This document shows, one piece after another, positions 15,165 through 22,210 of a stretch of DNA of 32,000 bases (position 1 is its first letter; each line of letters opens with the position of its first letter). Below the pieces are notes generated by a model, which did no database searches, had not been told where the DNA came from, and saw only the letters and a list, made by a program, of their open reading frames with translations. Where the stretch lies: positions 387,940-419,939 of the forward strand of contig OZ239628.1 of the NCBI GenBank assembly GCA_965195345.1, read 5' to 3'. A program made the translations under genes and the position numbers. Source of the DNA: an uncultured Thiomicrospira sp. (GTDB lineage: Bacteria > Pseudomonadota > Gammaproteobacteria > CAKMZV01).

Positions 15165-16394
15165 ATGTTTTTTTCATGTAATAAGATAAAGAAAGATGTT
15201 TTTAAATCTTCAAAGATGCTTTTTTTGGGAGCATACTTTGTTATTTTATTGTCATCTGCTTTCATGACATTACCCGCGAATGCCGACGAACACGAACAGG
15301 CTACAGAAACCTCAACAAATACTATTCAGCCAAGAGAACAAGCAAAAAAAGAAAATCCAGAGGTGCTGCCCTCTCACTTGCCGATTAAGAATATTCAATT
15401 CACTCCCTCTAAAAAAGAAAAAATTTTCTTTCATCATAACGATGAAAGAGACGAAGAACTTAGGGTGATCATATTGCAACAATTATTTGATCCTCTATTA
15501 TGGGAAAAGGCAAAAGTGAGCGCCATACAGTCAAAAATTGAATCTGCTTATATTGTTTATGATGATTCTAAAGGGGAGCGACAACATAGCCCTGATTTTT
15601 ACGATAGCTTAGAAAGCGCTCTGCTTAAAAAGATGGTTCAAACTACAGATATATCATTCAAAGGATGTGCTTACTCTTGTGTGCAGAAAAAAACAATCAC
15701 CATAACACAAAGTCGCTTGATTATTAGTACGAAGAACTTAAATAGACGCATTCGAAAAGAAATTGAATCGGGTGAAGTACAGGGCATTTTAAAATGGAGT
15801 TTCTTCTCAAATGCAGCTGGCAGTAAAGGAGGAATATCTGTTAGCCTACTCAATGCAAACAATAAGATTGTTTGGACCGATACGATTTTTGCAGACATTA
15901 ATGAGTTAATAGTAGCTGACGAAAACAAAGCGTCAGAAGGTGAAAGCCAATTAGGTATAGCATTGATGAGTCAGAGAATTCAGTTTGAAGAAGGAACGGA
16001 TCCAGTAACAGAATCAAACCAAAATGTTGTGGTGAGTTTTGGTTATAGAGAACGCATTACACCGTTCACCAGACTTAAATATTATTTAGGGGGGCGTGTG
16101 CTGTATAGCACTGGTTTAGCAAATAACTATTTTGCCATTTCAGCGAGTGCTCGTATAGGTTATACCATTTTTAATCTGCCCAAACGCGACGTTGATTTTT
16201 TCATAGGATTCGAGCAAGACCTCATATTAGTTCAAGGATTTAATGGCACACTTGCTGTAGATTGGCAGCTGAGTGATGCTTTTTATTTGCGAGGGATTTA
16301 TGAGCTGCCGTTGGATTCAGAACGCACAGATAATTTTGGTCAAGAGTATACCCTTAGTCCGGGTTTTTTGTTAGAAATGGGGGTTAAACTGTGA
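15165..16394 (+). CDS. Signal-peptide envelope protein with a beta-strand-rich C-terminal third (possible OM barrel); first gene of the rotor-stator cluster
   Basis: 409-aa ORF. A signal-peptide-like segment MLFLGAYFVILLSSAFMTLPANA|DEHEQ suggests the true start may be the internal ATG at 15216. The C-terminal ~120 aa show alternating hydrophobic/polar strand-like periodicity (VVVSFGY, YFAISASARIGYTIF, FFIGFEQDLILV, LAVDWQL, FYLRGIYEL). The stop overlaps the next gene's GTG (GTGA at 16391-16394). Confidence 0.6.
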   Translation: MFFSCNKIKKDVFKSSKMLFLGAYFVILLSSAFMTLPANADEHEQATETSTNTIQPREQAKKENPEVLPSHLPIKNIQFTPSKKEKIFFHHNDERDEELRVIILQQLFDPLLWEKAKVSAIQSKIESAYIVYDDSKGERQHSPDFYDSLESALLKKMVQTTDISFKGCAYSCVQKKTITITQSRLIISTKNLNRRIRKEIESGEVQGILKWSFFSNAAGSKGGISVSLLNANNKIVWTDTIFADINELIVADENKASEGESQLGIALMSQRIQFEEGTDPVTESNQNVVVSFGYRERITPFTRLKYYLGGRVLYSTGLANNYFAISASARIGYTIFNLPKRDVDFFIGFEQDLILVQGFNGTLAVDWQLSDAFYLRGIYELPLDSERTDNFGQEYTLSPGFLLEMGVKL

Positions 16395-16960
16395 ACGGGC
16401 TTAAAATATTATTTATCATCTCTGCAGTGATTTTTTTGTCAGGCTGCAGTTCAACAGAAGAGTTACAAACTTTGGATGCGGGCAGAGCAATCAAAGAGGG
16501 AGACGGTAAGGAAAATCTACCCTCGTCATTAATTGTTGAAAATGGCGTTATTTTTTTTAGAAAAGAAAGTGGTGGTGAAAAAATCGAATTTATTTTTAAT
16601 ATTGGTGAAAATGAAAACATCGAGTACGAGATAGAATTTGCTCCCCCTGAGAAAGAAAAGAGCGATCATCTTCCTGCCCAAAATAGTACCTCTGTAAGTG
16701 GCGAGTCTAAAAAGCTTGCGGATCGATTATTCCTATCTGCACAAGGCTATTTTTTAGAAGGAAATTATCGTCGAGCTTTGGTTGAGGTTAATCGAGCGCT
16801 ACGAGAAGACATGAAGTCTGGACTTCTTTGGGCTTTAAAGGGTTCCATACACTATAAGCTTAATGAATTTGGATTGGCACGCAATGCATGGAGTAAGTCG
16901 CAGGAATTAGACAAAGATATTACAGGCGTTCGAGAAATGTTATTAAAAATAGGGACGTAA
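16391..16960 (+). CDS. TPR-like lipoprotein (predicted periplasm-facing)
   Basis: 189-aa ORF with a GTG start overlapping the upstream stop. It has a lipoprotein signal ILFIISAVIFLSGC with Ser at +2. The C-terminal ~75 aa have a TPR-like pattern (AQGYFLEGNYRRALVEVNRALRED...LWALKGSIHYKLNEFGLARNAWSKSQELD). Confidence 0.65.
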   Translation: MNGLKILFIISAVIFLSGCSSTEELQTLDAGRAIKEGDGKENLPSSLIVENGVIFFRKESGGEKIEFIFNIGENENIEYEIEFAPPEKEKSDHLPAQNSTSVSGESKKLADRLFLSAQGYFLEGNYRRALVEVNRALREDMKSGLLWALKGSIHYKLNEFGLARNAWSKSQELDKDITGVREMLLKIGT

Positions 16961-16988
16961 TTAAGAATTAATTTGTGAGTATGAAACC

Positions 16989-20014: not shown

Positions 20015-20734
20015 ATGAATTCAGTTTTACGCAAAAAAAAGTCTATCAATAGAACAGATAACCTTTGGTTAATAACCTATTCAGATGTTGTGACGTTACT
20101 GTTGGTTTTTTTTGTGCTAATCATCGCTTTTTCAGTCGTTGATCAATCTAAATTTGAAGTGATTGCTGAAGCCATAAAAGCAAATAAGTTCGATGGGAAA
20201 AAGACGCTTCCTTTTCAAAAATTTGAACAAGAATTGCAAAAAATTATCGAAAAAAATGATTTAGAAGAAAAGGTTGTTGTAAATAAACAACCTCTAGGCG
20301 TTAGTATTGAACTTTCTGGTGAAAGTCTATTCCAATCTGGAGAAGCTATTTTGAATGCAACGGGTAGCCTCGCAATAAAACAATTAGCGAAGGCTATAAA
20401 AAACATTGAATATCCTAACTATCAAGTAGAGATTGAAGGACATACCGATGATGTGCCAATAAATAATGAGAAATACTCTTCCAATTGGGAATTGTCTGTC
20501 TTTCGCGCCATTGATGTGCTTAAGCTGTTAACAGAGCAGGGAATACCCAATGATAAATTCAAAATAGCTGGTTACGGAGAAACAAAACCTAAATATTCAA
20601 ATGAAACGGCTGATGGTTTACCTAATGTCGCTAACAGAGCTAAAAACAGACGAATAGAGATTAATGTTTTTCGTAAGGAGCGGCGTTATAGGGAATCGTC
20701 AACAAAAGAGGAAAATCAAAACACAGAAAAGTAG
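20015..20734 (+). CDS. motB: MotB-type stator subunit with OmpA-like peptidoglycan-binding domain
   Basis: 239-aa ORF. It has a single N-terminal TM, NLWLITYSDVVTLLLVFFVLIIAF, carrying the conserved protonatable Asp (D24, nt 20084-20086). A plug-like segment follows the TM. The C-terminal OmpA-like motifs are IEGHTDDVPI, SNWELSVFRAIDV, GYGETKP and NRAKNRRIEI. Confidence 0.88.
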   Translation: MNSVLRKKKSINRTDNLWLITYSDVVTLLLVFFVLIIAFSVVDQSKFEVIAEAIKANKFDGKKTLPFQKFEQELQKIIEKNDLEEKVVVNKQPLGVSIELSGESLFQSGEAILNATGSLAIKQLAKAIKNIEYPNYQVEIEGHTDDVPINNEKYSSNWELSVFRAIDVLKLLTEQGIPNDKFKIAGYGETKPKYSNETADGLPNVANRAKNRRIEINVFRKERRYRESSTKEENQNTEK

Positions 20735-20854
20735 TTTTTATAATATTTTTTGATTTTTGGCACGCATTGAGACTATTTTTAAGCAGGTTCTAAAATGCAA
20801 AGAAAGGGTATGGGATTCATATTTAACCGAATAAATGCTCTTACTTTTTCTAGT

Positions 20855-22210
20855 ATGAGAAAAAAAAATCCAATTCTACTGGTCTGCTCTTTTGTGGTGT
20901 TTCTCTCCTTCCCTATAAAAGCAACGAGCAATTTTCAACCTTCCCAATTGAGAACTTTGTTTAATCCTGCCGCTGAGAATCCATCAGCAGCAGTTATCTA
21001 CAGTTACTTATTCAATGATAGTGATATCGGGTTGCAAGTATATGGAGAAGCGCAAGGACTAGTAGAAAACACCATAGATGAGAATCAACTTCTAATGGAG
21101 TTGAACGGTATTATAAATTCTAATATTGGCGTTAATTCTATTAATCAATTTGAAACACAAATAAATAATTTCCTTAGAACTACTCAACCTATTCTTCGTG
21201 GTAATGCAAACGCAATCCTCGCTTTTCGAAAAGGATCAAATACAAAAAAAACTGCTGTCACTCTTAGTTATGATGATAGTCTCTTGTACTATCAACAATT
21301 GCGATTTATCAATGGCGTTGATGTTGATGTGCCGGCAGTAACAGCCTTAATTGCGGGCAACACGACCATTGATTCTGCAGATTTTTTGAACGCTATTGAT
21401 ACTGATGTGGGCATTAATAATACATTGGCACGTATCAGAACGTTCAGCTTAGGATATAGCCATCGCTACACGATTAATCCAATAATTAAATTCAGCTATG
21501 GTGTGCGTTTTAAAGCACAATCGGCATCTATTTCTTCAAACTTGGTGGACTTTCGAACAGTTATATCCACGACCAATGAGGTAGTTCAGTTAGAAAGTGC
21601 TGATATATTTGGAAATTTTGACACAGCAAACGAGCATATATATGGTAATGTTGATTTAGCTCTAACATTGCATGGAAGACAATATTTTATAAGCATATAC
21701 TCACTGGATACCATACCGCAAAGGTTAGCATTACCAAGTTTTTCCGATACATGCGAGTCTGTAAATGATTGTGCTATATCAGCACTGTATCCAAATGGGA
21801 ATGAGTTTTTTTATATCGACCCTAAAGTGCGTTTTGAATACAGCTATCTGTCACGACGCAAGCAATTTCGCTTTAGCTTTTTGTACGATATACTCCCTTG
21901 GAGAGATGGAAGTACTGCCGAGCGCCAACTGCTAACTATCCATACTGAAATTGCGACGACTAAGCGAAACACTAATAGACCCTATTGGGGACATCCCTCC
22001 CCTTCGATAAGGCTATCTGCTTTTATAGATGATGCTTCTTCTTTCGTGAATGATACTCTTATTCAGACAGGGTTCAGTGCATGGTTTATAGATTTAAACT
22101 TCACATTTGGCTTTAGAAAACCAGGTATATTAGTCTCTAGACCATCTAGAATTGAGAACAGCAGGACACTTCTACGCGGCATTCAGTTGGGAGTTAACGT
22201 TGATTTTTAA
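20855..22210 (+). CDS. Probable outer-membrane beta-barrel protein; last gene of the rotor-stator cluster
   Basis: The ORF is open from 20795. I prefer the ATG at 20855, which gives a classical signal peptide MRKKNPILLVCSFVVFLSFPIKA|TSNF. The protein is strand-rich throughout and ends ...LRGIQLGVNVDF, with alternating hydrophobics and a terminal Phe (a BAM beta-signal-like C-terminus). Confidence 0.6.
   Translation: MRKKNPILLVCSFVVFLSFPIKATSNFQPSQLRTLFNPAAENPSAAVIYSYLFNDSDIGLQVYGEAQGLVENTIDENQLLMELNGIINSNIGVNSINQFETQINNFLRTTQPILRGNANAILAFRKGSNTKKTAVTLSYDDSLLYYQQLRFINGVDVDVPAVTALIAGNTTIDSADFLNAIDTDVGINNTLARIRTFSLGYSHRYTINPIIKFSYGVRFKAQSASISSNLVDFRTVISTTNEVVQLESADIFGNFDTANEHIYGNVDLALTLHGRQYFISIYSLDTIPQRLALPSFSDTCESVNDCAISALYPNGNEFFYIDPKVRFEYSYLSRRKQFRFSFLYDILPWRDGSTAERQLLTIHTEIATTKRNTNRPYWGHPSPSIRLSAFIDDASSFVNDTLIQTGFSAWFIDLNFTFGFRKPGILVSRPSRIENSRTLLRGIQLGVNVDF

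Follow-up and report, generated by a model that had tools for sequence, protein, structure and literature searches.

The FliG-MotA torque interface and MotAB stators that bear a plug and are anchored through an OmpA domain are currently treated as hallmarks of the flagellum, and stators with a plug and an OmpA-type domain are classed as flagellar, in the passages of a stator phylogeny (PMC12505986) retrieved by term search; the same passages do not mention non-flagellar operons linked to FliG. The closest described entity to the locus reported here is the FliF-FliG fusion of the Chlamydiaceae (Bergeron, 2016; PMC4768692), a protein of ~330 amino acids (aa) with a region like the second ring-building motif (RBM2), one further RBM-like region, and only a FliG_M-like region. 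The Chlamydiaceae are not thought to be flagellated, the only flagellar genes listed for them are FliF, FliL, and FlhA, which leaves them without MotAB, and their fusion was proposed to interact with the injectisome (PMC4768692). Fusions of FliF and FliG have also been engineered from Salmonella and Vibrio proteins, and these assemble into 34/35-fold S-rings with a 1:1 stoichiometry (PDB 8z4d/8z4g; PMC11481574). Here, we describe an operon of six genes at positions 15165–22210 of a 32,000-nucleotide (nt) stretch of DNA from an uncultured Thiomicrospira sp. (GCA_965195345.1, contig OZ239628.1, 387,940–419,939), hereafter referred to as the window. The operon joins a FliF-FliG fusion to stator subunits and putative outer-membrane partners, and we consider it fairly probable that its products, homologues of flagellar motor proteins, form a self-contained rotor-stator machine that is not flagellar.

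All six co-directional open reading frames (ORFs) that an earlier note on this DNA had listed were recovered at the same coordinates, each on the forward strand. The first gene (15165–16394; 409 aa), designated X, encodes a protein with a signal peptide and a C-terminal barrel in the structural model, and is followed by the gene of a lipoprotein with tetratricopeptide repeats (TPR) (16391–16960; 189 aa, GTG start), the gene of the fusion, which is the proposed rotor (16989–19172; 727 aa), genes for a PomA/MotA-type stator A subunit (19169–19948; 259 aa) and a MotB-like stator B subunit (20015–20734; 239 aa), and a last gene designated Z (20795–22210; 471 aa). The stop of X overlaps the start of the TPR gene in a GTGA sequence and the fusion gene overlaps the MotA-like gene in an ATGA sequence, by 4 nt in each case, as that note had also recorded. 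Its statement that nothing else flagellar lies in the 32 kb agrees with a Pfam scan of the flanks, which found no flagellar gene in the window besides the cluster itself.

The identity of the 727-aa protein was only partly evident from the single sequence, which matched FliG_M (PF14841, 6e-12) and FliG_C (PF01706, 1e-16) and gave no match to YscJ_FliF (PF01514); its match to FliG_N (PF14842) fell on the M region, not on the N region. Word-indexed homology searches with the fusion, with a profile of 36 sequences, and with Z returned almost no matches, and it was an exhaustive HMMER search with the fusion that exposed its family, yielding 2227 relatives, 289 of them at E<1e-10. Among the best 150 relatives, 119 were 540–824 aa long, compared with ~330 aa for canonical FliG, and the fusion architecture was common to at least 119 clusters (50% identity) of proteins in this size range. 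The members of the long family share an N-terminal segment resembling a signal peptide, ~180–280 periplasmic residues, one transmembrane (TM) helix, and a cytoplasmic FliG region. When 36 of them were compared singly with Pfam, FliG_C and FliG_M were found in all 36, FliG_N in 25, and PF08345 (YscJ_FliF_C) in eight, while PF01514, which covers RBM1/2, was found in none (0/36).

A family profile built from these 36 long members was searched against PDB sequences. Similarity to FliG was strong (3hjl, 4e-42; FliG_N of 5tdy, 0.004), and profile positions 31–320 matched residues 227–558 of Salmonella FliF (6scn, 3.4e-14), with a further match to Vibrio FliF (8z5s, 5e-10) and a weak one to SpoIIIAG (0.048). 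The best PDB match of the profile was the engineered Vibrio FliF-FliG fusion 8z4d, in both halves of the protein. The lack of any significant FliG or FliF similarity, which the earlier note had named as grounds for abandoning its proposal, was therefore not observed. The similarity to FliF nevertheless appears only at the level of the family profile and the structure, and is limited to the C-terminal half of FliF.

The AlphaFold2 (AF2) model of the fusion, based on an alignment of 120 sequences, had a mean predicted local distance difference test score (pLDDT) of 77.8, with values above 94 in the folded periplasmic elements. A Foldseek search of the PDB with this model recovered full-length FliG over ~328 aligned columns (1.4e-9; 3hjl, 8wiw, and 8umx at ~1e-9) and some fifteen entries of the FliF RBM3/collar region, including 6sd1, 8z4g, 8z5v, and 7cg7, at ~4e-4 with a probability of 1.0 and target TM-scores of ~0.5; SpoIIIAG was found at an E-value of 0.93. 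The periplasmic S-ring module (aa 27–240; nt 17067–17708) consists of an RBM3 split by a long β-hairpin, the β-collar, and its elements as assigned by DSSP are strand 27–33, helix 36–58, strand 64–86, a loop, strand 180–206, helix 211–225, and strand 234–240. The same layout was described for residues 228–438 of Salmonella FliF, which form the S-ring and collar from an RBM3 split by a β-hairpin with a disordered tip at 305–354 (PMC8270960). The periplasmic region of the fusion opens directly with the strand and helix of RBM3 at aa 27.

The equivalent of the FliF 305–354 tip is a disordered loop at the collar's top (aa 87–179; nt 17247–17525; pLDDT<50). It contains an LPGAP motif (aa 132–136; nt 17382–17396) that aligns with the IPGAL motif of FliF, and residues L132, P133, and G134 are conserved at 90% or more in the 120 sequences, which makes the loop a candidate output or coupling element. 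A single TM helix (aa 286–305; nt 17844–17903), found by a hydropathy scan and helical in the model, is followed by a basic RKKR sequence, and this arrangement places the C-terminal half in the cytoplasm. There, the FliG-like region (aa 341–685; nt 18009–19043) is entirely helical in the model and comprises N-, M-, and C-like domains. Thus, the 727-aa protein corresponds to the part of FliF that runs from RBM3 to the C-terminus, followed directly by an apparently complete FliG. The FliF-like periplasmic part and FliG-like cytoplasmic part proposed earlier are indeed fused; the FliF likeness extends over RBM3 and the collar, the second TM helix, and the C-terminal tail, and RBM1/2 form no part of it.

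The MotA-like protein matched MotA_ExbB (PF01618, 2e-17), and its best NCBIfam model was PomA (3e-33), compared with 1.9e-3 for ExbB, 6.7e-3 for TolQ, and ~1e-2 for ZorA. Its residues 12–251 aligned with residues 8–241 of PomA in 8brd (1.2e-24), i.e., over the full length, and P151, P199, T158, and T185/T186 of PomA are retained. Residues T158, T185, and T186 are presumably those implicated in Na+ coordination in Vibrio PomAB, and judging from their retention the stator may be sodium-driven. The MotB-like protein matched MotB_plug (2e-15) and OmpA (3e-19), and its NCBIfam matches were MotD/MotB models at 1e-48 to 1e-38, with MotD the best (1.4e-48). It carries Asp24 (nt 20084–20086) in its TM helix, and the Asp, the plug, and the OmpA domain were kept in all six aligned homologues. 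These matches bear out the PomA/MotA-type channel and the MotB with an OmpA-like anchor that the first reading of the sequence had proposed; of the profile matches expected at that time, those to FliG_M, FliG_C, MotA_ExbB, MotB_plug, and OmpA were obtained, and the one to YscJ_FliF was not obtained with the single sequence.

The residues by which rotor and stator would meet were then compared with those of the flagellar motor. Arg634 of the fusion (nt 18888–18890), in the torque helix, corresponds to R281 of Escherichia coli FliG; the position is R or K in 104 of 120 family members and basic in seven of the nine fusions linked to stators. On the stator side, E96 and E97 of PomA align with Asp101 and Asp102 of the MotA-like protein, and the E96 position (E98 in E. 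coli MotA) is acidic in all nine linked stators. The positions of a second charge pair have diverged: in the window, Q and L stand in place of FliG D288/D289, positions at which only about one family member in three has an acidic residue, and PomA R88/K89 (R90 in E. coli MotA) are replaced by N and T. The EHPQ motif, through which FliG binds FliM, is not conserved either, being EHVQ in the window with the Glu alone conserved in the family; its loss fits the absence of FliM/FliN, that is, a rotor without a switch complex.

The X protein carries a signal peptide, a periplasmic domain of the alpha/beta type in its N-terminal part (~aa 94–245) with invariant Cys168 and Cys172, and a strand-rich C-terminal half (~aa 262–409) that was modeled by AF2 as a small outer-membrane β-barrel. 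Neither Pfam nor PDB sequences gave a match to X, and Foldseek related the model to OmpW, the OmpA TM domain, NspA, OmpX, and Ail at a probability of ~1 and target TM-scores of 0.45–0.6. On this model, which is of moderate confidence, X is a putative outer-membrane barrel protein, and we regard it as a core partner of the fusion. The only leads to the fold of its N-terminal domain were a match to GNA1162 and faint matches of single X homologues to FlgT_M/FlgO (E ~0.05–0.07); an assignment to FlgT or FlgO was considered and not supported, as these matches were so faint and no PDB sequence matched. The translation of X may start at Met18 (nt 15216).

The TPR protein (TPR_2, 2.5e-6; LPAM_1) begins with the lipobox LSGC with Cys19 and a small β-domain, from which a linker leads to a pair of TPR repeats at the C-terminus; most homologues have a lipobox as well. 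It gave only generic TPR matches in the PDB, and a specific role as a stator scaffold of the MotX or PflA kind was therefore unsupported. Z had no match in Pfam, NCBIfam, PDB, or PHROG; it is predicted to be a barrel from its signal peptide, the amphipathic pattern of its strands, and the C-terminal β-signal GVNVDF with its terminal Phe. Of the two proteins that the earlier note had called outer-membrane-barrel-like, X is thus backed by a moderately confident model, and for Z the signal peptide and the GVNVDF end were verified, the barrel itself being a prediction from sequence. The start of Z is most likely Met21 (nt 20855: MRKKNPILLVCSFVVFLSFPIKA), which yields a canonical signal peptide, and a sigma-70-like motif lies immediately 5' of the gene (20767–20796).

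We also compared the gene neighborhoods of 11 independent loci, using contig lookups for nine further family members and hidden Markov models built from our own alignments. Locus L001, an ENA metagenome contig of a 98%-identical strain, has the same gene arrangement as the window. Between the two, dS was ~0.05 and dN/dS ranged from 0 to 0.20 over the six genes (X, 0.17; MotA-like, 0.04; Z, 0.20; no nonsynonymous changes in the MotB-like gene), so all six are under purifying selection. An alignment-based scan of genome collections matched one GTDB genome, the unclassified gammaproteobacterial metagenome-assembled genome (MAG) L002, in which the six genes stand in the same order with 34–57% amino acid identity between flanks unrelated to those of the window (one flank has hemB, aroE, amiC, mutL, and miaA, and the opposite flank has ksgA and apaH); a metagenome scan with the same alignment returned no locus. 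The core of five genes (X, TPR, fusion, MotA, and MotB) was also present in Vibrio sp. SCSIO 43136 (fusion, WP_252026186.1; X, WP_252026182.1) and in several metagenomic lineages. The synteny that the earlier note had suggested looking for in other genomes is therefore complete in L002 and reduced to the core in the others.

Over the whole sample, MotA and MotB stand beside the fusion in nine of the 11 loci (L011 ends at the start of its MotB gene), and a homologous TPR protein, usually a lipoprotein, occurs in ten, which makes it the most constant partner of the fusion. An X homologue was adjacent in eight loci, including two divergent ones left out of model building, and Z homologues were confined to L001 and L002, the clade of the window. 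No other flagellar genes, FliM/FliN included, were found in any of the 11 loci. The carriers comprise Vibrio sp. SCSIO 43136, MAGs of Gammaproteobacteria and Deltaproteobacteria, and a contig with SprB/He_PIG neighbors. Gene order varies between these lineages, as in L006, where it is MotAB-X-TPR-fusion, and such rearrangement indicates that the linkage is maintained by selection rather than by recent common descent.

Several neighbors of the cassette deserve mention. Large surface proteins are encoded upstream of it in L003 (508–6285; an SprB/He_PIG/FG-GAP protein of 1925 aa), L005 (5845–8190; a Bact_surface_Ig-like lipoprotein of 781 aa), and L008 (1–850; a HYDIN-type Ig protein), and in L006 it is followed at 10614–16819 by a BBP2 barrel and Wza/Wzc/Wzy polysaccharide-export genes. 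The Ig-like and Wza/Wzc/Wzy neighbors may hint at an output, but they are inconsistent across loci. In L003 (11790–12389) and L007 (9944–10597), both of which have no X homologue, the fusion is followed by a signal-peptide protein of ~200 aa with an aromatic C-terminal residue and no Pfam match; by these features the two proteins resemble outer-membrane proteins and may substitute functionally for the X barrel. L007, from a deltaproteobacterium, also has a PilZ-domain gene on the reverse strand (6456–6797) immediately upstream of and divergent from its TPR-fusion pair, a possible link to cyclic di-GMP. In L004 (10001–13709), from a genome of 2.1 Mb, the 771-aa fusion member stands alone, with no MotAB, TPR, or X gene nearby; it has a long acidic C-terminal extension, and the next gene encodes a KAP-family NTPase.

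These data can be combined into a model of the machine. Many copies of the 727-aa protein would assemble through RBM3 to form an inner-membrane ring resembling the S-ring, with the β-collar projecting into the periplasm and one FliG unit below each subunit. Such assembly with 1:1 FliG is feasible, since the engineered FliF-FliG fusions form S-rings. PomAB-like MotA5B2 units would stand beside the ring, held to the peptidoglycan by the OmpA-like domain of MotB, and ion flow through the Asp24 channel would turn MotA against the torque helix of the FliG C-domain, Arg634 facing Asp101/102, so that the ring rotates. From the collar and its LPG-containing loops, torque might pass to the TPR lipoprotein, to X, and, in the clade of the window, to Z; alternatively, these three proteins could act as a scaffold or bushing that keeps stators and ring in register. 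Because RBM1/RBM2, an export gate, a rod, and FliM/FliN are all lacking, the torque cannot feed a flagellum; the physiological output may be to move or handle some component of the cell surface or envelope. We rate the coupling of the ring to the outer membrane below the rotor-stator identity of the cassette. The fuller proposition is more tentative: a widespread, autonomous, non-flagellar rotary motor, in which PomAB-type stators drive a FliF (S-ring)-FliG ring whose collar loops couple it to the TPR lipoprotein and a barrel, powering an envelope or surface process.

Several observations weigh against a rotor-stator machine of this kind. The second charge pair (MotA R90 with FliG D288-D289) is absent in the window. 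Neither of its sides survives in the window or L002, L005, L008, L009, and L011 retain the two of them, and three loci are discordant; concordance in only six of nine loci was not significant, and the idea of co-variation was dropped because the loci were too few. The barrel model of X is only moderately confident (pLDDT 57.6). L004 and L007 carry the fusion without adjacent MotAB, and Vibrio, a carrier genus of the cassette, is expected to be flagellated. Finally, every stator and FliG score lies below the corresponding NCBIfam equivalog cut-off: 75.1 bits against 226.7 for the fusion (TIGR00207, FliG), 115 against 341 for the MotA-like protein, and 165.8 against 283 for the MotB-like protein (MotD). 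Given these missed cut-offs, the absence of RBM1/2 and EHPQ, and the lack of flagellar gene context, the cassette proteins belong to the homologous superfamilies of FliG, FliF, MotA, and MotB and are not their functional equivalogs.

Comparison with the flagellar motor's core demonstrated both what was retained and what was lost. The S-ring/collar module, a FliG with M- and C-domains and an N-like region, a PomA-type A subunit, and a MotB that has the plug, the Asp, and the OmpA domain are shared, as are the equivalents of FliG R281 and MotA E98, and the fliF-fliG gene order is preserved in the form of the fusion. Unlike the flagellar proteins, the cassette joins FliF and FliG in one polypeptide (flagellar FliG is a soluble protein of ~330 aa), lacks RBM1/RBM2, which house the export gate, and has a signal-peptide-like segment in place of the first TM helix. 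EHPQ is lost in the cassette, and the equivalents of D288/D289 and MotA R90 in the lineage of the window. None of the 11 loci has FliM/N, export apparatus, rod, hook, or filament genes, and the cassette instead has a dedicated TPR lipoprotein and putative outer-membrane-barrel partners. The chlamydial protein, as published, likewise joins a shortened FliF periplasmic region naturally to a FliG-like cytoplasmic domain, but the cassette protein differs from it by RBM3 and the collar, a FliG with M- and C-domains and an N-like region, and adjacent MotAB. The engineered fusions share the single polypeptide and the 1:1 stoichiometry; however, they are laboratory constructs with full-length FliF (RBM1-3) inside a complete flagellum.

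The cassette also resembles ExbBD-TonB, TolQRA, AglRQS, GldLM, and ZorAB in being an ion-driven inner-membrane motor of the stator type that would deliver energy to the envelope or outer membrane, with dedicated partners setting the output. Those 5:2 motors, however, each work on one extended partner protein (TonB, TolA, GltG/J, GldM, or the ZorA tail), not on a FliG ring, and according to the retrieved passages of PMC12505986 their A subunits have no PomA-type cytoplasmic domain and most of their B subunits have neither plug nor OmpA domain. The B subunit of the cassette has both, in contrast to the ExbBD/TolQR/ZorAB class, and PomA far outscores ExbB, TolQ, and ZorA as a model for its A subunit. 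An analogy may further be drawn with the stator scaffolds of Vibrio (MotX/MotY/FlgT/FlgO/FlgP) and Campylobacter (PflA/PflB/FlgP), in which TPR/Sel1 and outer-membrane-anchored proteins position peptidoglycan-anchored stators, as the TPR protein and X possibly do here, although neither of them has a significant sequence match to those scaffolds.

Among the alternatives, the one that survives best, unlikely as we judge it, is a non-rotary use of the same parts, with the fusion as a static trans-envelope scaffold or conduit similar to SpoIIIAG and MotAB as a source of force or gating, or as a sensor of ion flux or of the envelope, for secretion, polysaccharide export, or outer-membrane maintenance. 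The S-ring/collar fold is common to SpoIIIAG, predicted outer-membrane barrels and a lipoprotein are co-encoded, the polysaccharide-export genes with a BBP2 barrel follow one locus, large Ig-like surface proteins precede three, and in the window the second of the torque charge pairs has degenerated. The similarity of the fusion model to SpoIIIAG is nevertheless far weaker than that to FliF (0.93 vs 4e-4), and the neighborhood hints differ from locus to locus. Moreover, torque on a ring requires what the cassette has retained, namely an apparently complete FliG including the torque helix, a MotB with a plug and a peptidoglycan anchor, and a PomA-type cytoplasmic domain, and force transducers of the ExbB/TolQ type have no such features in the passages of PMC12505986 concerned.

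Still less likely is that the cassette serves a canonical flagellum encoded elsewhere, as an accessory or alternative rotor acting, for example, as a specialized basal structure, a spare stator-docking ring, a brake, or a load sensor. It is built of PomAB/FliG-type homologues of flagellar proteins, one carrier is the Vibrio mentioned above, the motors of Vibrio and Campylobacter have stators scaffolded by TPR/Sel1 proteins and outer-membrane lipoproteins, and the faint FlgT_M/FlgO matches of X homologues point the same way. Against this, flagellar genes neither surround nor adjoin the cassette in any of the 11 loci, a fusion without RBM1/2 and EHPQ can neither house an export gate nor bind FliM, and no sigma-28 or sigma-54 flagellar promoter motif was found upstream of the cassette. 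In addition, one locus has neighbors of the SprB/He_PIG type, typical of the rarely flagellated Bacteroidota, to which its contig would belong by this indication.

A decaying relic, in which leftovers of fliF, fliG, and motAB were fused by chance and persist without function in a reduced genome, is suggested by the small genomes of the source and its relatives (contigs of 1.56–2.1 Mb), by remnant flagellar genes documented in non-motile species (PMC12199754), and by the FliF-FliG fusion kept in the Chlamydiaceae (PMC4768692), but it is very improbable and largely refuted by the purifying selection on all six genes and by the conservation of the architecture in at least 119 clusters, and is further opposed by the co-conservation of the non-flagellar partners X and TPR, the intact channel and interface residues, and the tight translational coupling of the operon. 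Other identities were rejected: PADLOC yielded only a generic ZorB/MotB similarity and a weak ZorA match (7e-4) for a defense system, no PHROG match pointed to a phage origin, and plasmids showed canonical FliG only.

The surroundings of the operon in the window are of housekeeping character, and the Pfam assignments agree with the fds operon and the phosphoribosyltransferase (PRTase) named earlier. The flanks contain msrA, a dimethylglycine-dehydrogenase-like gene, pntAB, fdhD with the fds operon, the PRTase, a Rce1-like protease, a U32 peptidase, gmk, dnaN, dnaA, lipB, clpP, and tig. GC content is ~0.35–0.40 in the cassette (15000–22000) and 0.41–0.43 in the upstream fds operon; this AT-richness, together with the unrelated flanks of the L002 counterpart, suggests that the module moved between genomic contexts. 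Generic promoter and terminator scans performed no better than chance. Between msrA and the dimethylglycine-dehydrogenase-like gene, a 652-aa ORF on the reverse strand (725–2683) had no Pfam or PHROG match, and the fdhD/fds formate-dehydrogenase operon includes, between fdhD and the gene of the 2Fe-2S subunit, a DUF7009 gene (9620–10000, forward strand) that is kept in L001. The ORFs of the PRTase (22225–22875, TTG start) and the Rce1-like protein (22814–23425, reverse strand) overlap by 62 nt, probably an artefact of ORF calling, since the gene call on the near-identical L001 is 195 aa. The minimum of the cumulative GC skew is near 8 kb, corresponding to the divergent pntA/fdhD intergenic region (8376–8770), ~18 kb from dnaA-dnaN (25505–27963); nine-mers resembling DnaA boxes numbered eight against 9.9 expected and were enriched nowhere in the window.

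In agreement with the view that no system of such composition had been described, a full-text literature search, with limited coverage of subscription journals, found no description of the cassette. A conservative classification is that of the flagellar rotor-stator placed in an assembly that is not flagellar, with a conserved operon in which the torque-generating core alone is retained and combined with new, putative outer-membrane partners. Experiments look feasible, since the genome of Vibrio sp. SCSIO 43136 is available at NCBI as two complete replicons and the strain appears to be an isolate. If the cassette is autonomous and rotates, it would constitute a novel type of envelope machine, the first in which the FliG-MotA torque interface works outside the flagellum, and it would offer biophysics a natural minimal rotor-stator with FliF and FliG at 1:1, no switch, and no export gate. 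Its origin would then lie either in exaptation of the flagellar core or in a rotor-stator module that preceded the flagellum and has a surviving relative in the cassette. The finding bears on the origin of the flagellar motor in that neither type III secretion nor a filament is needed for a rotor-stator pair to exist and to be favored by selection. Thus, the cassette suggests an undescribed rotary machine relevant to the origin or re-use of the flagellar motor.

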